A stretch of 37,240 bases of DNA, from positions 1 to 37,240 of the forward strand of contig JAUXEQ010000001.1 of the NCBI GenBank assembly GCA_030620455.1, written 5' to 3'. The notes under the pieces were generated by a model that worked only from the letters and a program-made list of their open reading frames with translations, made no database searches and was not told the DNA's origin. Shown here piece by piece: positions 14,187 to 25,346 of this stretch. The position numbers and the translations under genes are program-made. The stretch comes from a bacterium. GTDB lineage: Bacteria; UBP14; UBA6098; B30-G16. Each line of letters opens with the position of its first letter. Position 1 is the stretch's first letter.

Positions 14187-17100
14187 CTATTCTCGCTCAA
14201 TCCCTTTCCAAACAGCGATCTTGCGCATAACTACTTTATCGCCAAAATCAACAACAGCAATGTATCCGCCGTTTGCTACAACTTCCCCCTCATCATTCTC
14301 ACCTTTCCAAATAATTTCACCTGCTCTGGAATCGCTTTTAAGGTGCTTTTCACCAGTCCAGACCAAATTACCAAACATATCATAAATTTCAATTTTAATA
14401 ATCGCACCCATTTCTTTTGCCTTAAGCATTATATGGGTAATCTCATTGGTGCTCGGATCGAACGGATTAGGGAAATTTATTACTTCTTTATCTGAAGGAT
14501 CGATTATAATCTTATATGTTCTTGTTTCAGAGGGATTCTCCGCTCTGTCGAGAACTTGTGCATAAAGCAGTCTAGCGCCTTCTCTCAATGCATCCATGTG
14601 CTCATCTGATAACACTGCACCTACTGGATAGTATGGTTCGTCTGCAGCATGATATAACACTACAGGATTGTCAGGGCTAAATTGCAGTATTTGAACATTA
14701 TAGTCGAAATCAGGAGACTCATCTACCATAAGAGCATATACTAATCCCGGATATGTATCCTCAGGATCGAAAATTGTAATCTGCACATCGCTCTTATCAG
14801 ACCAGTTAGGATCACCGGAATCTTCATCTCGAGCCTCTATTTTTTCCATTGTCGGAGTAATTGTGTCCAAAATTATATCATCGTGATTTACAGGACTTTT
14901 ATAGCTTCTATATTTAACCTGACAGAAAACATTTTTAATTTCATTAACCAGAGATGCAAATTCAAACTCAGAGGTTCTACTGAATTTAATCCATGAGCGC
15001 GAATGTAAAGCCTCTTTGGATTCTGCGAACCGCATCGAGTCAGGTTCATCGACTGTGTTTATAACTGTAATAACCGATTTGCTATTTGTAAATTCGCTAT
15101 CGAGAGTGTCATTAGGAGCTACAACTTTGAAATCAAATTTATTCCATATCTTAAGGGAATCCACTATACTCGCATTACCTGCAGAATCGACTACGACTAC
15201 ACCGATTTTATACAGGATTCCCGGATCTAATAAATCAGCCAACGGGAAGAAAACGTTATAATCGTCTTCTCCAACATCCCAGCTTCTATTGTAAACAGAA
15301 CATAATTTTGTGTCAATTTCCGCAACATGGAAACATACTTTCCAAAGATGTGGTTCAACTATATACATCGGAATTGTATCGGGAAATCTCGTGGTATCGT
15401 AGAATTCAAGTGGATTGAAAGAGAAATTTGGAGGAGTAATGTCATAACCACCATTAACAACTGAATTACGCCAGTTACCTGCACCATCCATTGCACCACC
15501 AATAATACGGAAAGCAGCTTCTGTCGTATCTATGATTAACTCGATGCTATCGTTCGGATATCGAACTACTATCCCAGAATCGATGGGTAGATAAGATCGT
15601 CCGGGGTCCCATAATGTCGATGCGAATGGACCAAGGAAATGTAAGGAATCCACACCAGATAATTCGTCGGTTGCAAGTGGTATCGATGCATAAATTTCTC
15701 TCTCATTAGCCCAACCCATGTGAGCTTTCCAAATGTTTGGCCACATTTCAAACGACGTAGTATCCCAAACGGTAAAACCTTCTGGAATATCTGGGAGTGT
15801 TTGATCTAATATTATCGAATCTTTAAACATAGGAGAAACTGTATGAGCAACGGATCTTATCCAACCATAGACAACTTTTATTCCATCTCCAGCAGGTAAA
15901 GTATGTGTAACATCAGTGCCATGAAGATATTCAATCCATCTTGGATCCTCTGGTGGGATTGGCATCGTATCCATTGCCAAATAATATGATTCACCGGTTT
16001 GACCTGTTACGTCAAATTTAATACCTACAATTGTCGAATTAGTATATTGTGTAATCCGGGGTCTATCCAGATCGTAAAGAGTCATCGATGCTGAAATTTC
16101 CTTACTGTATCTAATCGATGCGTTTGCCATAAGGCTTATATTCCCGGCATTGTCTTTTACTGCTATGTAAAGCGTTTTTGTATCTCCCGGTTCCTCGAGG
16201 AAAGTATATGTATCTATACCGGTGGAATTGAACTTTCTCCATCGTGTAGATAGGTCACCGGGCCAATGTCCGGGATTCTCAAAGAAGGCTATGTAAGCTG
16301 GTATATATGGATCATCTGTGGCATCGGTCTCTACAATAACTGTTAGACTATCAGTTTGATCGGAGGATCCAGAGTTTAAATCGCGAAGAGTTACCAAACT
16401 TATCTCTGGTCTCTTTGTATCTAACGTTATTTCAAAATATTTTTCAAGCGACCAATTTCCTGCCGAATCTTGAACGAACCCATTAACTCTATAACTACCG
16501 TCACTACCGGGAAGGTCGAAATTCAATGGTTCTGCAAAATTCCAGGGATCAATTATCTCAAGCGCATCAACCTGGATTTTTCTCATAAATATTCCAGTAC
16601 CATCTGGGAATCCCGGGATAGCTCTATCATATGCAGAAAAAATAGCCTTCACATTAGCTTTATTTGTATAATGTGTATCAGCAATTTCAGATGTGTCGCT
16701 GGCATTAAATCCGGTTGAAATATCTAGAACTTTGAAATCATCAAGAATGGGATTTCTAGTGTCAAGAATTATACAGCGAGTATCTGGGTCAGTAAAAGGA
16801 CCATATTCGCTATAACCTCTCGCGATAATGCATCTTTCCCCATCTCCCTCAGAGAAAACGTGAACGATTGTCGTGTCTTCTCCGGGAGGTAACGGTTCTA
16901 CATCGTATCTAACTTCGATAAGACCGTCATTGAGTATTACGTAATGTATATCATCATTATAGCTAACGGTTACATTAACTCTTGTAGAATCGGTATAAGT
17001 TCCAGTTAGATCTGGTCCGTTAATATCTTTGATGCTTATAAGTTCTACAATACCATTGAAAGGATTGTAACATATTGAATCGTGTGCAGCATTTGAGATA

Positions 17101-18800
17101 TTACCTGCGGAATCCTTAACAACAACCCAAATATGCATCCAGTCACCCTCTGAAAACCCACTGAACCCAAAGCTAACTGTATCATCAAAATCACGCCATT
17201 CAGCGTCAGGAATGTTAGCCAAATCGGCATAATTCTGTGTAAGATACATTTTATAGAATGGTGTACTCCCCGGTTCAGGTACAATGTTAATCAATACATT
17301 CTCAACATCGGTCGAATCGAAAGGCAATCTTGTCGATAAATCAAGAATAGTTACTGAGCGTAAGGATGGTGGGTTAGTATCGAGAATAATATTACCTATT
17401 TTAGATGTAGAATAGTTACCAGCAAAATCCTTTAGCTTAACATAGAACTCTCTTAACCCGTCACCAGGATTCATTATATAAAGATAATGTACAACTGGAA
17501 GGTATTTAAACACCTGTAAATTATCGAGGAAAGTTGGACCTTCAGATACATACACACTTTCAACACCCGATGCATAAACATCACCGAATCGTGGTGGGTC
17601 TGTTGCATTAAATGGATCGACCCATATATTTACACTGTTAGTATAACCGCCTTCTGCAGGGACATCTGTGGGATGTGGTGTTAGTGTCGTATCAGTCGAT
17701 GTTACTCTGTTAAATTCCGGGTCTCGAGTATCGATGTTAATTGTAGCCTTAGGAGCTAAAGCATCCTCAATATTTTCCGCTGAGTCGATAGCCTGAAGGA
17801 AAATTTCATAATGTCCATCGGATACTGGACTAAATAAAAGACTATCGTTAATGTTAAGAGCACCAAAATATTCTCTGACAGTATATTCTGTTATAAGTCC
17901 AAAATCTTTTTTATACAGTAGTTTAATAATATCCACACCACTATATAAATCACCACCATCGAAAAATAGAGAACAGTAAGGCACGGTGTAATACGTCAAA
18001 AGCCCCGATGTTTCTATATTCGACCAAGGTTTTTCCGTATCGAATCTTGTCCATGTCTGCATATCGGCTAAACCACCAGGAACGCTGTTGGGATCTATTG
18101 TATTACCCAACCTATCCTCACCTGCAAGAAAGAATTCATAGTATCCATCACCACCGACAGATGCGGAATTAAAACTCACTGAAGAAGAAATCGGTGATCC
18201 ACCAGGAAGTGGTTCATCACCATACAGAGTCCATGTGGACATGGAATCGGTTCTGAAGTATATGTGAATTTTTCTTACGTCGCTAACAATTGCATCTTCT
18301 GTCTTGAAGAATACGTCCTTTCGAACAACATTAGTCCATCTATTTAATGTATCTATAGCAACAGTTGGTGGTGTATTATCTTGTCGAGAACATGTATATC
18401 GAGACCAATCGGAAAAAACCCATATTCTCCCTGATACCCTTTGCCTATATTGTATTCTATAGCAATATCTAACTCCACTTCGCAATGCATCATCCGCAGG
18501 ACTGGCATCAAGATTCAATCCTATTGTATATTTGTTCCCAGGAGCACTCGATGTGGGAATAGGGAAAATAGAATAAATTGGATCAACTAAATCTGGGAAA
18601 ACAGGAATTCCATCTGCATCAACAACCTGGATATGAAAAGCAATTGTCGGATCGATGGCAGCACTGGGTGGTAATGACCAGCTCAGTTCGCAAGTAGTAC
18701 CCTTTGTATAATCAGGAAGAAGATTCAATGTCGGAGCTGGAATCCCCAAAGCTAAGCCGACAAGGGCAAATATGCATCCTATTATTATATTCCACCTCAT
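14187..18800 (-). CDS. 1537-aa surface protein: N-terminal FN3-like module, about 12 tandem Ig-like modules, T9SS-type/FlgD-Ig-like C-terminal sorting domain
   Basis: SD AAGGAG lies 8 nt before the ATG. Signal peptide MRWNIIIGCIFALVGLALG. Module boundaries D-[TQ]-x-x-P recur (DNTPPTV, DTEKP, DTRDP, DTNPP, DTRNP, DTKRP, DQTLP, DITPP, DTITP), as do late-strand D-x-A-G-N motifs (KDFAGN, KDSAGN, QDSAGN, KDNAGN, MDGAGN, VDSAGN). C-terminus: VINFPNPFDPSTNEITHIML...IEIYDMFGNLV...IIWKGENDEGEVVANGGYIAVV. Confidence 0.85.
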   Translation of the reverse strand: MRWNIIIGCIFALVGLALGIPAPTLNLLPDYTKGTTCELSWSLPPSAAIDPTIAFHIQVVDADGIPVFPDLVDPIYSIFPIPTSSAPGNKYTIGLNLDASPADDALRSGVRYCYRIQYRQRVSGRIWVFSDWSRYTCSRQDNTPPTVAIDTLNRWTNVVRKDVFFKTEDAIVSDVRKIHIYFRTDSMSTWTLYGDEPLPGGSPISSSVSFNSASVGGDGYYEFFLAGEDRLGNTIDPNSVPGGLADMQTWTRFDTEKPWSNIETSGLLTYYTVPYCSLFFDGGDLYSGVDIIKLLYKKDFGLITEYTVREYFGALNINDSLLFSPVSDGHYEIFLQAIDSAENIEDALAPKATINIDTRDPEFNRVTSTDTTLTPHPTDVPAEGGYTNSVNIWVDPFNATDPPRFGDVYASGVESVYVSEGPTFLDNLQVFKYLPVVHYLYIMNPGDGLREFYVKLKDFAGNYSTSKIGNIILDTNPPSLRSVTILDLSTRLPFDSTDVENVLINIVPEPGSTPFYKMYLTQNYADLANIPDAEWRDFDDTVSFGFSGFSEGDWMHIWVVVKDSAGNISNAAHDSICYNPFNGIVELISIKDINGPDLTGTYTDSTRVNVTVSYNDDIHYVILNDGLIEVRYDVEPLPPGEDTTIVHVFSEGDGERCIIARGYSEYGPFTDPDTRCIILDTRNPILDDFKVLDISTGFNASDTSEIADTHYTNKANVKAIFSAYDRAIPGFPDGTGIFMRKIQVDALEIIDPWNFAEPLNFDLPGSDGSYRVNGFVQDSAGNWSLEKYFEITLDTKRPEISLVTLRDLNSGSSDQTDSLTVIVETDATDDPYIPAYIAFFENPGHWPGDLSTRWRKFNSTGIDTYTFLEEPGDTKTLYIAVKDNAGNISLMANASIRYSKEISASMTLYDLDRPRITQYTNSTIVGIKFDVTGQTGESYYLAMDTMPIPPEDPRWIEYLHGTDVTHTLPAGDGIKVVYGWIRSVAHTVSPMFKDSIILDQTLPDIPEGFTVWDTTSFEMWPNIWKAHMGWANEREIYASIPLATDELSGVDSLHFLGPFASTLWDPGRSYLPIDSGIVVRYPNDSIELIIDTTEAAFRIIGGAMDGAGNWRNSVVNGGYDITPPNFSFNPLEFYDTTRFPDTIPMYIVEPHLWKVCFHVAEIDTKLCSVYNRSWDVGEDDYNVFFPLADLLDPGILYKIGVVVVDSAGNASIVDSLKIWNKFDFKVVAPNDTLDSEFTNSKSVITVINTVDEPDSMRFAESKEALHSRSWIKFSRTSEFEFASLVNEIKNVFCQVKYRSYKSPVNHDDIILDTITPTMEKIEARDEDSGDPNWSDKSDVQITIFDPEDTYPGLVYALMVDESPDFDYNVQILQFSPDNPVVLYHAADEPYYPVGAVLSDEHMDALREGARLLYAQVLDRAENPSETRTYKIIIDPSDKEVINFPNPFDPSTNEITHIMLKAKEMGAIIKIEIYDMFGNLVWTGEKHLKSDSRAGEIIWKGENDEGEVVANGGYIAVVDFGDKVVMRKIAVWKGIERE

Positions 18801-18840: not shown

Positions 18841-21800
18841 TTATCTGATTAAAATGACATTACTTATTGAACTGAATTTTTGCCCAGAGGCATCAACTAT
18901 GTATACTCCGCTGGGTAAAGCACGATCTGAATTATCTTTTCCATCCCACACAAGATTCAATATGCCCGGTTGAACAATGTCACTGTAAAGTTCTCTAACT
19001 GTTTTGCCTTTGATATCTCTAATGGAAACTGTCATCATATCCTTAGAGGGTATTGTAATCGCAATATTTACTTGAGCATTGAATGGATTAGGATAGGAAT
19101 TAATATTGAAGACTAAAGGCTTTGGATCGTAAGTAACTTCATATTTACCTGCTTGAAGTGGATATACATCGCCTTCATTAAGCTCATAATGAATACCCAT
19201 TCCTGAAATTTCCCATCTACCGTCAAGCAAACTTTGAACAGTTAGGTTAATCTCTTCGGGAACCTCGACAGTCCAATTCCCTGAATATGACAATCCTTTT
19301 AAAAGCATTTCATCCTCGTCACCAACAATATAAGACGGATAAGTCGTGGTCGGTAACGGAGGCATAATCACGTCATAACCATCGATGGCAAATTTTAACT
19401 TTTGGCAACCAAAAACTAAACTTGCATCGATAGGAAAATTAACAAAGCCCTTCAAGGATCCGCTATATCGAATATTTACTGTGGCATCTGTGGACAAAAG
19501 CATGAAATAACCTTTTCCAGCCTGCAACTCTTCAGCACTCACAAATCCTGAATCTGGATGATAACCTAAGACATTAGTTCGAGGATAAAAAGCTCCCAGA
19601 GGATTAACAGTAAAAACAGCATTACAAGCTGGGTCTCTTTTCGATAACCCTCCAATTATATGCCAACCACTACCGGTCAATCTTAACGAAAGCGATGGTA
19701 TGCTATATCCATCAATAGATTGATAGTGATCAACAATGCTGAGAATCCAATATCCAACTCCAACTTCGAGATCATAGGCATTTTCATACATTTTAGTTGC
19801 CGTATTATATTTGAAACAGTTGCCCAAAGGAATGTATGGGAATATTTCGTCTAACCTCATACTTGAAGGTATTAAAGGAAGACTAATTAAATTCCAACCT
19901 CTATAAAAATGGATCGTATCACTTTTACCTCTAAATAATGTATCTTCAAACTCAATCCATTGTGAATATGCACTTTCGTTACCATATTGGTCAATTGTAG
20001 CAATATGGAAAAATCTAAATGGTGCACCAACAATGATCGTATCTGGAAGTCTAATCGTGTCTCGTCTAATAGGTTTTTCTCTCCAAACAAGAAGAGAGTC
20101 ACCGGTGCATAACCATTCCGCTGCTGCCGTATGTTCTACTCTATACTTATTGAAATCAGACCAGCCAGGTGGTCCATAATCTGAAGGTGTAATATCTGTC
20201 CATGTAACAACAATCCAAATTTTGCTATCATGCGCTATATCCATATATACAGTATCAATTTCCACTGGATATGGTGGTGTATGAGGTGCAAATCCTTTTT
20301 GCCGTGGTTCAGATAGATCTTCTGATAAATTACCAAAACTATCGGCTACAACAATTGTATAGTAATTAGCTCTGAAATTATCCATAGGATCTGGATCGTC
20401 ATCGATAAATTCGTAAGAGGGTGCCCCGCTGTGAGATATCGATGCAATTAGGTCACCAATATTACCTTCAATACTCGATCTATAAATATCATAAGATTCA
20501 ACACCAATACCATCGTCAAAAGAACCGGGAAATGTAACGCTTACCATAAGTTCGTTCGTGCATTCAGCAATAGATTTAAGATCGTTAGCCATTACAGCCC
20601 GAGGTGGTGTTTGATCAAAATGTGTGACAACATAATTAGAAACAGCCTCGTTATTAATATTATCCCAGACCATAACTCTAAAGAAGTATGGTCCTTCAGA
20701 TATTCCATGAATAACGCATGTTAATGTATCCCAATCTGAACAATCGTAATCATCTGGATTTGAGAGCGCGATGTCATGAATCGACGAGAACATATAACTT
20801 ACTATTTCATCGGTAAATCCACTTCTTCGAGACTGTTCTACCATCAAACGAGTGATATCACAATGACTTGTATCTATTATTGTTAAAACAACAGAGTCAG
20901 CTTCACTCCATCGAGGTAGATCAATGAGTATCGGTGGAGCAACGCTTTTATCCGATTTCGTGCGAGTTCCCCCACCGAATACATAATGACCGACATGGTC
21001 AAAAAACAGGAGATAATAATAGTATTCTTTCCCATCAATAAGTCCTTCACCCACGTCCCACCAATAATAGTATCCTGTATCTTTATATTCTTCAATATTA
21101 AATACTTTAATATAAGAACGAGTAGTATCTAATATTGCCTCATCTTCAAGAGTATCGAATTCGTCTGCCAGAAGTCTATAAAGTCGGATTTCGGCTAATC
21201 CCGTTCCGCAATCAATTTCATCCTCAAAAGAAGTCCAAAATCGGATTACAATATCCCCATCATCATTGGGATTCGCAATAATGCTATCCGCACCTCTTAA
21301 AGGACCATTTATATCCGCAATAACGGTTTCTCTTTTATTATACCACTCTAAAATAGTATCGGGGTCTGTTGACCTTGCTCGTATTCCGAATATATATCTA
21401 TGGCAATCTTCCATAGCCCAATCGTTATGAGGTTGATCCCGCCATGCTGAAAGAAATGTGTCCCCCTCAGCTACATCTATTAATCTGTATTGATATTGCA
21501 TTTCCGGTCTTGGATAACAATGTTTGCTACTTTTTACTGTAAAATTGTCGGTAGTAATAACATTCGGAATTGGTTCGAGAATAGCGCACATTGGCATACC
21601 GCACTCCCCTGGACCTGATGTTACTACTTCATGCCATGGATTACCAGTTCTGGGATGATAACCAAGCGGTCCAGGAGGTAATCCTGCGCTGTCGAAAGGC
21701 ACAACGACATAATAGTATCTCTTTCTAAGTTCTATCGATTCATCTGTATAGAAATACATTATTGATCCGTCCTCGAAAACCGAATCGATAGCAAGGGTAA

Positions 21801-22323
21801 TATTATCGATAACACTAACTTTGCGTGGATCTGTAAACCGATATATTTTGTACATATGTATTGCAGATGCATTATCCTCAGCTCTTTCCCAGATAAGCTC
21901 GACCCTCTGAGGTGGATCACCACAGTAAAGAGCAATGAAGTATGGCACTACAGACGGTGGTTTTATGTCGTGAGTGATATCGATGGGAGCTGACCAATCT
22001 GAAGTATCTGCTCCAAAGGTTGCTCTAACCCGATACCAATATCTTTCACCGTCGTTGGCATTCAAAAATTTGCAAGTGTCCGCTTCAATGAATACTGTTG
22101 TTGAATCTGAACCACCAAAACTTCGATGTATGCGTCTAAACTGATATTTAGTTCCCGTGGGATTTCCGCTGCATGCCGAGTCAACTTTTGCAGTTATCGA
22201 AGCATATGGATAATAATAATGTCCTAATACTGGTGGATTCATAAGTTCTGCACATAAAGGTCCTATCTGCCCCAAAGCTAAGGAAAATGCCAAGAGCATT
22301 GTCAAAAAAACCAGCTTCCTCAT
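18841..22323 (-). CDS. 1160-aa surface protein: multiple FN3-like modules, GWNL/GYW domain, T9SS-type/FlgD-Ig-like C-terminal sorting domain
   Basis: The track ORF starts at 22395 and overlaps the M23 gene. The internal ATG at 22323 follows AAGGGGGAG and gives a clean signal peptide, MRKLVFLTMLLAFSLALGQ. FN3-like ends: YWYRVRATFGADTSDWS, YYYVVVPFDSAG, YIFGIRARS, YFFRVMVWDNINNEA, NYYTIVVADSFGNLS, FFHIATIDQYGNESAYS. Then FYRGWNLISLP...VGVGYWILSIVD...GKGYFMLL. C-terminus: INSYPNPFNAQVNIAI...VSIRDIKGKTV...LVWDGKDNSDRALPSGVYIV. Confidence 0.85.
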   Translation of the reverse strand: MRKLVFLTMLLAFSLALGQIGPLCAELMNPPVLGHYYYPYASITAKVDSACSGNPTGTKYQFRRIHRSFGGSDSTTVFIEADTCKFLNANDGERYWYRVRATFGADTSDWSAPIDITHDIKPPSVVPYFIALYCGDPPQRVELIWERAEDNASAIHMYKIYRFTDPRKVSVIDNITLAIDSVFEDGSIMYFYTDESIELRKRYYYVVVPFDSAGLPPGPLGYHPRTGNPWHEVVTSGPGECGMPMCAILEPIPNVITTDNFTVKSSKHCYPRPEMQYQYRLIDVAEGDTFLSAWRDQPHNDWAMEDCHRYIFGIRARSTDPDTILEWYNKRETVIADINGPLRGADSIIANPNDDGDIVIRFWTSFEDEIDCGTGLAEIRLYRLLADEFDTLEDEAILDTTRSYIKVFNIEEYKDTGYYYWWDVGEGLIDGKEYYYYLLFFDHVGHYVFGGGTRTKSDKSVAPPILIDLPRWSEADSVVLTIIDTSHCDITRLMVEQSRRSGFTDEIVSYMFSSIHDIALSNPDDYDCSDWDTLTCVIHGISEGPYFFRVMVWDNINNEAVSNYVVTHFDQTPPRAVMANDLKSIAECTNELMVSVTFPGSFDDGIGVESYDIYRSSIEGNIGDLIASISHSGAPSYEFIDDDPDPMDNFRANYYTIVVADSFGNLSEDLSEPRQKGFAPHTPPYPVEIDTVYMDIAHDSKIWIVVTWTDITPSDYGPPGWSDFNKYRVEHTAAAEWLCTGDSLLVWREKPIRRDTIRLPDTIIVGAPFRFFHIATIDQYGNESAYSQWIEFEDTLFRGKSDTIHFYRGWNLISLPLIPSSMRLDEIFPYIPLGNCFKYNTATKMYENAYDLEVGVGYWILSIVDHYQSIDGYSIPSLSLRLTGSGWHIIGGLSKRDPACNAVFTVNPLGAFYPRTNVLGYHPDSGFVSAEELQAGKGYFMLLSTDATVNIRYSGSLKGFVNFPIDASLVFGCQKLKFAIDGYDVIMPPLPTTTYPSYIVGDEDEMLLKGLSYSGNWTVEVPEEINLTVQSLLDGRWEISGMGIHYELNEGDVYPLQAGKYEVTYDPKPLVFNINSYPNPFNAQVNIAITIPSKDMMTVSIRDIKGKTVRELYSDIVQPGILNLVWDGKDNSDRALPSGVYIVDASGQKFSSISNVILIR

Positions 22324-22381
22324 AAAGCTCCCCCTTAATTTATCAATTTTTTTGGATATTTTACTAAACTTAACTTTGCAT

Positions 22382-23647
22382 CTATCCTTGTTCAAGTGAA
22401 AAATCCTTTTTTAAAGAATTATTTGAATTTGCATTGACAAAAATCTGTACTCCTTTAATAATTGAATCTGCATACTTTTTAAATATTTCCAAATATTTTT
22501 TCTTTACTGGTGGTCCAGTTGGAAAGGCATATTTTTCTGGATTAACAAACTTTCCGTTTACTTTAACTCTGTAATCGAGATGCGGACCAGTGGAAAGCCC
22601 AGTTGAACCGACATATCCTATCACCTGTCCTCGTTTTACTTTCACACCTTTCCTGATACCTCGGGTAAAACGCGATAAATGTCCATACATAGTTTCTATA
22701 TTATCCTTACCGGGGTGTTTTATATGGATAAATTTACCGAACCCTCCTTTCCATCCGCAATATACTACAGTGCCAGAACCCGATGCGGATACAGGAGTAC
22801 CAATAGGTGCAGCATAATCTATACCCTTATGTGGTCTGTATATCTTCAGTATCGGGTGAAAACGGCGATAAGAGAAATGAGAACTTATTCGACTGAAAAC
22901 GAGAGGGCATTTTAAATGAGATTTTTTCATCGACTTTCCTTTAAGATTATAATATCCCTCAGTTCCAGTAGGATCAGAATAATGTATAGCAGTATAAGTT
23001 TTCACTCTATCAACTAGTTTTTTAGTTGCCTTATCTCTTTCTTTGTAAGATTTACTATACTCCGCTAAGAGAATTTTTCCAATTCCCACAATTTCATCCC
23101 TGAAAATAAGTTTCTCGTATACTATTTTAAATCGATCCCCTTTGCGAGTCTCAGTGTTAAAATCGATATCATAAGCAAGGACATCTGTGAAATCGTAAAT
23201 AGCTCTCATTTCAATGGATTTGCTAAACATAGACTCGGATAATGTATTCTCAACAACTCCCTGTGCAGAGAAAATTACTTTTCTCAAAGGTATTGTATCC
23301 TTAGCGACTTGAAATGTATCTCCTATTTTCTTTACAGTATATTTTTCCCAACGAGAACGAGTAACCTCAAATTCTAGAAGATTCTCCAAGCTATCATATT
23401 CAATCGAGAAATGATCCCCAGGATAAATCTTTCCCATATCGAGAACCGATGAAATGCAAGAGATCGCTTGATTAACAGCCTTAAACGGAATGCCACGATC
23501 AATTAGAACCTGTGAAAGGGTTTGATTCGTATATACATCGCCTTGAGCAATGCAAGTCATCCCCTCAATTGGTTCAATCGAGATAAGCAGCATGTTTAGT
23601 ACTGCAAACATTGCGATCGAAGAAATTTTATACTTATAAGAACCCAT
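22382..23647 (-). CDS. M23-family (LytM/MepM-like) peptidoglycan metalloendopeptidase
   Basis: Catalytic motifs HKGIDYAAPIGTPV, MYGHLSRF and GSTGLSTGPHLDYRV. N-terminal membrane anchor plus a MepM/Csd3-type N-domain. No obvious SD, so the exact start is uncertain. Confidence 0.88.
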   Translation of the reverse strand: MGSYKYKISSIAMFAVLNMLLISIEPIEGMTCIAQGDVYTNQTLSQVLIDRGIPFKAVNQAISCISSVLDMGKIYPGDHFSIEYDSLENLLEFEVTRSRWEKYTVKKIGDTFQVAKDTIPLRKVIFSAQGVVENTLSESMFSKSIEMRAIYDFTDVLAYDIDFNTETRKGDRFKIVYEKLIFRDEIVGIGKILLAEYSKSYKERDKATKKLVDRVKTYTAIHYSDPTGTEGYYNLKGKSMKKSHLKCPLVFSRISSHFSYRRFHPILKIYRPHKGIDYAAPIGTPVSASGSGTVVYCGWKGGFGKFIHIKHPGKDNIETMYGHLSRFTRGIRKGVKVKRGQVIGYVGSTGLSTGPHLDYRVKVNGKFVNPEKYAFPTGPPVKKKYLEIFKKYADSIIKGVQIFVNANSNNSLKKDFSLEQG

Positions 23648-23683: not shown

Positions 23684-25108
23684 TTATCTTATAATTTTAT
23701 CTAAAGAAATTTCCTTTTCAAAAGCCTTAACAATAAAATAATAGACATCGGTTTCTGAATCGCACCAACTTTTCGACAGAATACCAGCTTGCATACACAC
23801 TCTATCTAATCGCATCGATGGTGATATATCAGAATCTTCCCATGGCATTACAATACCATCTTTAGTTCCCTGTCGAATATAAATACCCAAATCAGGACTA
23901 GGTTCCTCAACTCCCTCGACTATTTTAGTTAACCCAACAACCAATGTAGCATTCTCGAACGTTCTTCTTCTACTCGACGTGTGTTTAAGAGAATATTTCA
24001 AAGACTTACATAAGCTTTTTGCCGTCTCGGAGAAAGGTCTTGTTGAGAAAAGATCCCCATTTCTCACTAGAATTTTGTCATCGATTTTAATAGTGATAAA
24101 TACTCCACATCGAAGATTGGAAATCCTTCGTGGAAGAACCGGTGGATTCTGTCCAATTAGAATATTATAAATGTATTTTAATAACAAATCTCTATCTTTA
24201 TCATTAATTGTTTCTAAAGCTAAAGTATTATGAGATTTATATGTTTTTCTTACATCAATCCACGCTATCGAGGCTATCCCACAAATCTCTGCGGTTGGAA
24301 ATCCTGAATTTACATACCCCTTAACGACAATTCCTGTATCGGCACCAAGCGCTCTTACTAATTTAATTGAAAATGCTGACCCCCAAGGGTTAGAAAGATT
24401 ATATTTCCCAGTTTCAAAATTTTCTACAATGACTTTCTCCATCATAGCTGTCATTATTACCATTGTCGACCTGAAAGTGCGAGTAACTTCCCTTGCATCT
24501 TCGCCCTTTGCCAGATTTGAAACATTTACAATAAGCGGATCATATTCTGAAAATAAATGGGAACAACTGTTAGCAATTCCATCGAGGACGTTATCATCTT
24601 CCTTACCAACAAGGAAAACTATAAGAGGCGTCGATCTAAACGAGTATTGTGTAAAGGGTAATTGAAACCAAAAACTTTTTGGTGGACATTCGTCAACTAA
24701 TTTTATTTTGGGTATTCTTTCACTAATCTTTTTCACGAGTGTAGAGTCAATAATCTGAGTGCCTAAAGGAGTTTTGAAGTATTTGAATTTCATAATTGAA
24801 ACCCCCTTTTGACCCGGTGGAGCTTCCACAATAACAACAATCAACTTTTTCCTTTCCTGAGATGCCAAATTATATGCTGCACCAATAACAGTTCCGGAAA
24901 AAAGATAGCTCTCTTCAGGCACTAAAATTCCAATAATATTACCCCTAAGTGGTCGAGGTTTAACCATATTAATATAATCTGTAATTTGATCCCAAAGGAC
25001 AGTGGGATCAGAGGGGAAAAGACCATTTTCAGCACAATATTCTTCAACTAAGTTCTGGCTAAAAACTACTCCCAAAAAAGCCAAAACCAACAATATGTTT
25101 AATTTCAA
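23684..25108 (-). CDS. Secreted Memo-like / AMMECR1-like fusion protein with degenerate active-site motifs
   Basis: TTG start at 25108 lies 9 nt after GGAGG. Signal peptide MKLNILLVLAFLGVVFSQ. The N-terminal half is collinear with Memo (GILVPEESYLFSGTVIGAAYN; LIVVIVEAPPG; TPLGTQIID; PLIVNVSNLAKGE). The C-terminal half is collinear with AMMECR1 (CGVFITIKIDDKILVRNGDL; LGIYIRQGTKDGIVMPWE; CMQAGILSKSW...YYFIVKAFEKE). Confidence 0.7.
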   Translation of the reverse strand: MKLNILLVLAFLGVVFSQNLVEEYCAENGLFPSDPTVLWDQITDYINMVKPRPLRGNIIGILVPEESYLFSGTVIGAAYNLASQERKKLIVVIVEAPPGQKGVSIMKFKYFKTPLGTQIIDSTLVKKISERIPKIKLVDECPPKSFWFQLPFTQYSFRSTPLIVFLVGKEDDNVLDGIANSCSHLFSEYDPLIVNVSNLAKGEDAREVTRTFRSTMVIMTAMMEKVIVENFETGKYNLSNPWGSAFSIKLVRALGADTGIVVKGYVNSGFPTAEICGIASIAWIDVRKTYKSHNTLALETINDKDRDLLLKYIYNILIGQNPPVLPRRISNLRCGVFITIKIDDKILVRNGDLFSTRPFSETAKSLCKSLKYSLKHTSSRRRTFENATLVVGLTKIVEGVEEPSPDLGIYIRQGTKDGIVMPWEDSDISPSMRLDRVCMQAGILSKSWCDSETDVYYFIVKAFEKEISLDKIIR

Positions 25109-25346
25109 TTTAGATGACCTCCGCCTTCATCGATATACTAGCATTTATTAGGTCATCCTCCTTTCCAACCGGAATAATTATCTACTTTCACCTAATAAAA
25201 GCTTAACCCAAAAAGAGTCAAGAAAAAAGTATGGTGTATTTTTTATAGTAGAAATACCAGAAATCCGTAATTCCCGTTAAAAAGATAACCTAATAATCAG
25301 TTACTATTCACTCCTTATTACAAATTATAAGTTATAAATCTCCATA

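Follow-up and report, generated by a model that had tools for sequence, protein, structure and literature searches.

The locus and its genes

In this study, we analysed a stretch of 37,240 nucleotides (nt) from a bacterium of the UBP14 lineage (contig JAUXEQ010000001.1 of assembly GCA_030620455.1, positions 1 to 37,240, hereafter the window), and within it one minus-strand gene whose product is a putatively exported fusion of a Memo-like and an AMMECR1-like domain in which the hallmark motifs of both families are replaced (Table 1). The Memo and AMMECR1 protein families are of ancient origin and have links to disease, and to our knowledge their biochemical function is not known in any organism. 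Burroughs et al. 2019 is said to be the main comparative study of the Memo families, and no open literature was found on what the AmmeMemoRadiSam system does in bacteria or on degenerate members of it. An initial annotation, made from the letters of the window alone, had read the gene as an exported pseudo-enzyme at the head of a block of surface-protein genes.

The degenerate fusion lies 238 nt downstream of ftsK and, as the initial annotation gave it, 36 nt upstream of the gene of an M23 peptidase. Two genes of giant surface proteins follow, and the block continues in the window with an outer-membrane barrel/TPR protein, ExbB, two ExbD proteins and an NHL/TPR protein. The fusion gene probably heads its own transcription unit, because FtsK is found upstream of it only in the closest relatives. 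A weak terminator-like hairpin with a T-run was also seen between ftsK and the fusion gene (25202-25222, minus strand).

The encoded protein begins with MK, a run of 14 hydrophobic residues (LNILLVLAFLGVVF) and SQ, with the n/h/c layout of an export signal and a mean Kyte-Doolittle hydropathy of 3.2 over 11 residues. An equivalent leader is present in eight orthologs with a complete N-terminus, and in the AlphaFold2 (AF2) model of the protein the leader is a low-confidence N-terminal helix standing apart from the domain. Judged by inspection and hydropathy, the leader resembles a typical Sec signal peptide, and the protein is predicted to be Sec-exported and periplasmic.

Table 1. Features of the degenerate fusion, its conserved neighbours and the canonical paralog of the same genome. 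Positions refer to the window, except in the last row; aa, amino acids (residue numbers of the degenerate fusion).
Feature	Position	Strand	Evidence
Degenerate Memo-AMMECR1 fusion, coding sequence, 474 aa, TTG start	23684..25108	minus	Open reading frame list, Pfam/NCBIfam matches, full-length paralog alignment
Shine-Dalgarno GGAGG, 9 nt before the TTG start	25118..25122	minus	Direct sequence reading
Predicted Sec signal peptide, aa 1-17 (MKLNILLVLAFLGVVFS), cleavage near VFS/QN	25058..25108	minus	Inspection and hydropathy
Memo-like (PCAD/LigB-type) domain, aa ~28-285	24254..25027	minus	PF01875, profile against 7m8h, Foldseek against 7l5c
VPEESY for xPHAGY; MEMO1 ligand H49 replaced by E65	24905..24922	minus	Alignments
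VEAPPG for GPSH(H/R) / G.AH; MEMO1 ligand H81 replaced by P97	24812..24829	minus	Alignments
CPPKSFWFQLPF for xxEHSxExQLPF; EHSxE replaced by PKSFW, H by K144, E by W147	24653..24688	minus	Alignments
VSNLAKGE for S(S/T)DxSHYH; D189/H192 equivalents replaced by N198/K201	24500..24523	minus	Alignments
LSNPWG region for xCGxxP (CG(W)GP); MEMO1 ligand C244 lost	24380..24397	minus	Profile alignments
AMMECR1-like domain, aa ~301-467	23708..24208	minus	Profile against 1vaj/1zq7, PF01871 in 9/9 family proteins, Foldseek against 1vaj
ILVRNGDLF for LRGCIG; Cys lost	24047..24073	minus	Alignments
M23 peptidase, Csd3_N2-like domain, conserved partner gene	22382..23647	minus	PF01551, 107 bits; adjoins a homolog of the degenerate fusion in every relative examined
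1184-aa surface protein, FlgD_ig / Por_Secre_tail C-terminus (giant 1)	18841..22395	minus	Next after M23 in all degenerate-fusion loci
1537-aa Big_13 / CHU_C-type surface protein, fourth gene of the conserved block (giant 2)	14187..18800	minus	Synteny
Canonical 536-aa Memo-AMMECR1 fusion, contig C12 of the same genome	L001:883-2493	minus	Memo 186 bits, AMMECR1 163 bits; all motifs intact

Two folds in one predicted protein

A word-indexed homolog search matched only the degenerate fusion itself, and relatives were recovered by a full HMMER scan of 1.84 billion representatives, which yielded 1271 of them. Eight of these are clear orthologs (E 1e-43 to 1e-67, about 30% identity to the degenerate fusion), and together with it they formed a family profile of nine proteins. 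The Memo-like half is recognized directly, with 52.6 bits against Pfam PF01875 (E 5e-14, residues 31-232, gathering score 27) and 64.6 bits against NCBIfam TIGR04336 (AmmeMemoSam_B, cut-off 26). The AMMECR1-like half is weak in the single protein, scoring 17.6 bits against both PF01871 (residues 408-462, gathering score 25) and TIGR04335 (AmmeMemoSam_A, cut-off 99) and so falling under both thresholds, and it is secure at the level of the family, since all nine proteins match PF01875 and PF01871 (the latter at E<=0.01, best 2.6e-11).

Searched as a single sequence against PDB sequences, the protein gave marginal matches only, after which both domains were settled by the family profile and a fold search. 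The N-terminal half of the profile matches the MEMO1 structure 7m8h (E 5e-7), and its whole C-terminal domain matches the AMMECR1 homologs 1vaj (E 2e-6) and 1zq7 (E 2.7e-6). The AF2 model, built on an alignment of 98 sequences, has a mean predicted local distance difference test (pLDDT) score of 91.1; compared by Foldseek, it resembles MEMO1 7l5c (E 6e-14, template modelling (TM) score 0.75) and 1vaj (E 1.7e-9, TM 0.60), with 1zq7 and 1wsc matching too (E about 1e-9). These searches show that both the Memo and the AMMECR1 fold are kept in the modelled protein.

Loss of the signature residues

The degenerate fusion aligns end to end with the canonical fusion on contig C12 of its own genome (22% identity, E 2e-17), and its motif columns were compared through this paralog alignment together with profile alignments. 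The iron or copper ligands of MEMO1 are H49, H81 and C244, and binding is abolished in the H49A and C244S variants (PMC11081632). By our alignments neither the three MEMO1-type ligands nor EHSxE, SxDxSH or the cysteine of LRGCIG survive in the degenerate fusion, and the DPRF and LPQV motifs of AMMECR1 are also gone. The alignment at the CG motif is uncertain by about 3 residues, and the surrounding residues 235-247 include no Cys, His, Asp or Glu; residues 343-356 likewise include no Cys, and the ortholog consensus at the LRGCIG site is AR.GDLF. The description in the initial annotation of a Memo-like half with every hallmark motif replaced, joined to an AMMECR1-like half without LRGCIG and preceded by a Sec-type leader, was thus borne out, with the Memo profile matching above threshold, the ligands absent from the inspected active-site columns and the leader predicted as above.

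The metal and signature residues are lost in all eight distant orthologs as well. The former ligand columns are variable among them (the H49 column holds E, G, A, D or S), and no alternative ligand is conserved at these columns across the nine proteins. On the other hand, despite identities of only about 30%, the orthologs share thirty invariant positions, including W147, Q149, G351, L353 and F354.

A second copy maintained by selection

Compared with two relatives at 92-93% identity, the degenerate fusion has a ratio of nonsynonymous to synonymous substitution rates (dN/dS) of 0.20-0.30, against 0.13 for M23 and 0.17-0.22 for FtsK in the same comparison. It is under purifying selection and is a working gene. 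Of 25 genomes sampled from its class, the one holding the metagenome-assembled genome UBP14_UBA6098 (whose two Memo matches are identical to those of one sampled genome), about 21 have exactly two Memo matches: a stronger one (156-225 bits, in a frame of 510-566 residues), the canonical fusion, and a weaker one (33-108 bits, in a frame of 476-541 residues), the degenerate copy. The degenerate copy is retained across six families of the class, and three Zixibacteria genomes have a single Memo-AMMECR1 copy, which is the M23-linked one. Lost residues, purifying selection and class-wide retention are thus found together in the degenerate fusion, and as far as can be judged from sequence these are the marks of a pseudoenzyme.

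Gene order around the M23 peptidase

In all five loci of distant relatives that retained downstream sequence, the ortholog of the degenerate fusion is followed by the ortholog of M23, and homologs of giant 1 and giant 2 come next where enough sequence remained, so that the order proposed from the window is conserved in relatives. Identity to these distant relatives is 30% for the degenerate fusion and 57% for M23. Less degenerate relatives have the same gene order, with overlapping stop and start codons at the junction with M23; one group of them keeps SIE and NDPRF and has RGG for RGC, and another keeps LRGCIG and has lost the Memo motifs.

A wider sample of 80 loci (L017-L096) was retrieved with the M23 protein as query. 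A degenerate fusion is present in 11 of the 11 clade loci with enough upstream sequence, and at the same site upstream of M23 many Zixibacteria loci have either a fully canonical fusion or Memo and AMMECR1 as adjacent separate genes. All degenerate loci (L017-L030), and no Zixibacteria locus, have a giant-protein gene after M23. The M23 subfamily is marked by HxGxD and GPHLDYR, with HLD instead of the textbook HxH in 77 of the 80 loci, from many phyla. A tie between HLD, in place of HLH, and the degenerate partner was considered and ruled out, since HLD occurs with or without a Memo neighbour.

Three loci of this sample (L045, L032 and L039) show another arrangement, in which Lon, a Memo gene (274 residues, no leader), M23, uridine kinase and the AmmeMemoSam radical SAM gene follow one another. 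The M23 start overlaps the Memo stop, M23 thus sitting inside an AmmeMemoRadiSam cluster, and no AMMECR1 gene was seen in the stretch covered.

Canonical fusions and their export

The search for further copies in the genome, which the initial annotation had pointed to, found the canonical fusion on contig C12 and a single AmmeMemoSam radical SAM gene (TIGR04337, 380 bits) on contig C49 (L005); no radical SAM gene lies in the window, as first reported, and none at the degenerate loci. The open frame of the C12 fusion carries a lipoprotein-type leader (…MLVFALLLGCVSSGE…) and is followed by nusB and a metallophosphoesterase gene, and the same lipobox and neighbours recur in same-class genomes (lipoboxes of the canonical copies of the class include LLLGC, FMSGC and FAGC). 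Directly after the canonical lipoprotein-type fusion of one same-class genome (G019) lies the gene of a UbiA prenyltransferase (PF01040, 113 bits, L098:8454-9380).

The initial annotation took Memo and AMMECR1 to be cytoplasmic proteins, typically encoded by separate genes, and neither premise held for this subfamily. Fusions make up about 120 of the best 150 HMMER matches and occur in many phyla. In a sample of 80 canonical loci (L100-L179) from many phyla, chosen by their catalytic motifs alone, signal-like N-termini were found in 44 of 54 canonical fusions, compared with 0 of 10 split Memo genes. Fusion and export thus appear, from these predicted N-termini, to go together in Memo proteins. 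Because fusions are widespread and most have signal-like N-termini, the fusion and the leader of the degenerate protein are best seen as inherited and not as special to it. Among the 80 canonical loci, a radical SAM gene lies within 4 kb in 35.

The radical SAM partners of fusions often have putative hydrophobic or twin-arginine-like leaders of their own, with motifs such as DRRTFIK, RRQFLK, TRRAFVQ and SRKEFLKRF (loci L005, L116, L119, L122, L124, L138, L139, L147, L156 and L169, and L045:5258-6406); in the C49 copy, MRKVLNKYSLIIISLIIIIFFV stands in frame before the usual start as a putative leader. These leaders suggest that the whole AmmeMemoRadiSam system may be located in the envelope.

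Origin of the degenerate copy

A maximum-likelihood tree has a branch, with a Shimodaira-Hasegawa-like approximate likelihood ratio test (SH-aLRT) value of 99, to one side of which every degenerate protein lies, and in this tree the canonical copies of the class group with other canonical fusions. Constraining the degenerate proteins to group with the M23-linked Zixibacteria proteins gave the best likelihood found (p 0.85 in the approximately unbiased (AU) test). With a canonical, single-copy fusion at the same position in a subset of Zixibacteria, the degenerate fusion has the appearance of a pseudoenzyme that stayed behind at the ancestral M23-linked site when the gene was duplicated. An ancestral Memo-AMMECR1 gene would have stood upstream of M23 and would have been duplicated in the ancestor of the class; the relocated lipoprotein copy would have kept catalysis, and the resident M23-linked copy would have lost its sites stepwise and become a pseudoenzyme.

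Several features of the tree weigh against this history. Grouping the degenerate proteins with the canonical copies of the class also passes the AU test (p-AU 0.54), the tree has long branches, and the degenerate clade may be sister to either of the two groups. The history of a resident copy was favoured because of gene position, and the tree is compatible with it and does not prove it.

Possible roles of the degenerate fusion

The view that the gene opens the M23 and surface-protein block and encodes an exported pseudo-enzyme gains from the kept folds, the lost residues, the purifying selection and the class-wide synteny with M23. In our preferred reading, the degenerate fusion would serve the M23/surface-protein module as a periplasmic accessory without catalytic activity. 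We consider it somewhat probable that the duplication left a resident pseudoenzyme which was kept for a periplasmic function other than catalysis, most likely together with M23 or its envelope module. In this proposal, the protein would be retained in the periplasm without catalysis and would most likely bind or regulate the presumably co-expressed M23 endopeptidase, or an envelope module built with M23, and W147 in the former metal pocket and G-D-L-F in the former LRGCIG loop would take the place of the lost active sites.

Four points count against this proposal. The signal peptide was assigned by inspection only, the loss of catalysis was inferred from the loss of motifs and not from a known reaction, and the physical link between the degenerate fusion and M23 is likewise inferred. 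In addition, adjacency to M23 was seen in only one of the 80 diverse canonical Memo-AMMECR1 loci, so that the link may be a lineage-specific gene order, which therefore offers no general clue to the function of Memo and AMMECR1.

An alternative to which we assign a modest chance is that the degenerate fusion acts in the periplasm to assemble or chaperone the two giant CTD-type (C-terminal domain) proteins, or the barrel/ExbBD module, and that its adjacency to M23 is only an inherited order. The giant genes appear downstream of M23 exactly where the catalytic motifs have been lost, being found in all of L017-L030 and in no Zixibacteria canonical locus, and the block runs on into the outer-membrane barrel/TPR protein and ExbB/ExbD/ExbD; however, it is to M23 and not to the giants that the gene is tightly joined, often with an overlap, and by Foldseek the fold is unlike any known chaperone.

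It is rather unlikely, if of wider consequence, that the exported Memo-AMMECR1 (AmmeMemoRadiSam) machinery acts on the envelope together with a MepM/Csd3-like M23 endopeptidase in the Zixibacteria/UBP14 lineage, with peptidoglycan or a lipid-linked envelope precursor as substrate. The degenerate fusion would then be a natural separation-of-function variant, without catalysis but keeping the surface that binds or regulates M23. We rated this idea lower because of the single M23-adjacent case among the diverse canonical loci.

Pseudoenzymes often regulate active paralogs, and the degenerate fusion might likewise pair with its own canonical lipoprotein-type paralog and modulate an exported AmmeMemoRadiSam system. 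Almost all genomes of the class contain the two copies, which are both predicted to be extracytoplasmic, and this fits such a role, but the genes always stand apart (nusB or UbiA genes adjoin the canonical one), the degenerate copy is only 22% identical to the canonical one, and nothing is known of oligomerisation in the family. This possibility seems improbable to us.

There is, further, a slight chance that the protein has been rebuilt, by neo-functionalisation, into an enzyme or a specific ligand binder around W147, Q149, D352, R433, C438 and C449. While the thirty invariant positions and the new motifs FW(Y/F)QLPF and GDLF, placed exactly at the old sites, would accord with a rebuilt site, the former ligand columns are variable in the ortholog group, no new conserved set of His, Cys, Asp or Glu surrounds the pocket, and W and F/L are rather what one expects of a filled pocket. 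Finally, a decaying relic without function, as could be imagined from the loss of all signature motifs and an evolution faster than that of the neighbours (30% identity compared with 57% for M23), is effectively refuted by a frame intact in every relative, dN/dS of 0.2-0.3, retention in six families, the thirty invariant columns and a fold predicted with confidence (pLDDT 91).

The folds and the AmmeMemoRadiSam system are already known and named, and the degenerate M23-linked paralog is the new part. That a whole class keeps a second exported copy, stripped of its conserved sites, beside M23 and the giants implies a non-catalytic, probably protein-binding, scaffold role. The degenerate copy is also a natural control for future assays of the active paralog. 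Public records of degenerate members (RKZ27512.1, MBN1756240.1 and MBN2542401.1) bear the name 'AmmeMemoRadiSam system protein B', and some fragments protein A; the name 'AmmeMemoRadiSam system protein B' overstates the capability of these members. If the exported machinery does act on the envelope with M23, the pair formed by the degenerate fusion and M23 would be a first handle on the physical role of Memo and AMMECR1.

Relation to known proteins

The closest known counterparts are the canonical fused AmmeMemoRadiSam B+A proteins (TIGR04336 plus TIGR04335), such as the C12 copy, with which the degenerate fusion shares its domain order, length, folds and, by prediction, an N-terminal export signal. 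It differs from them in that its catalytic and metal motifs are all replaced, with TIGR04335 under its cut-off, and in that its partners are M23 and giant surface proteins, with no radical SAM gene nearby. Human MEMO1 (PDB 3bcz, 7kq8 and 7l5c) has the same fold as the N-terminal half; unlike MEMO1, the degenerate fusion is without equivalents of H49, H81, C244 and D189/H192, is predicted to be exported and is fused to an AMMECR1 domain. The C-terminal half shares its fold with the AMMECR1 homologs PH0010 (1vaj), MM0484 (1zq7) and ST0229 (1wsc), from which it differs in having no LRGCIG cysteine loop, DPRF or LPQV.

Catalytically dead regulators of cell-wall hydrolases are known in the degenerate LytM factors of the EnvC/NlpD type and in Csd2 of H. 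pylori. The degenerate fusion may be likened to these proteins as an exported, non-catalytic descendant of an enzyme that is linked to a peptidoglycan hydrolase, the analogy being one of function only. Unlike them, it has a Memo/AMMECR1 fold and not a LytM fold, and its regulatory effect on M23 is a proposal.

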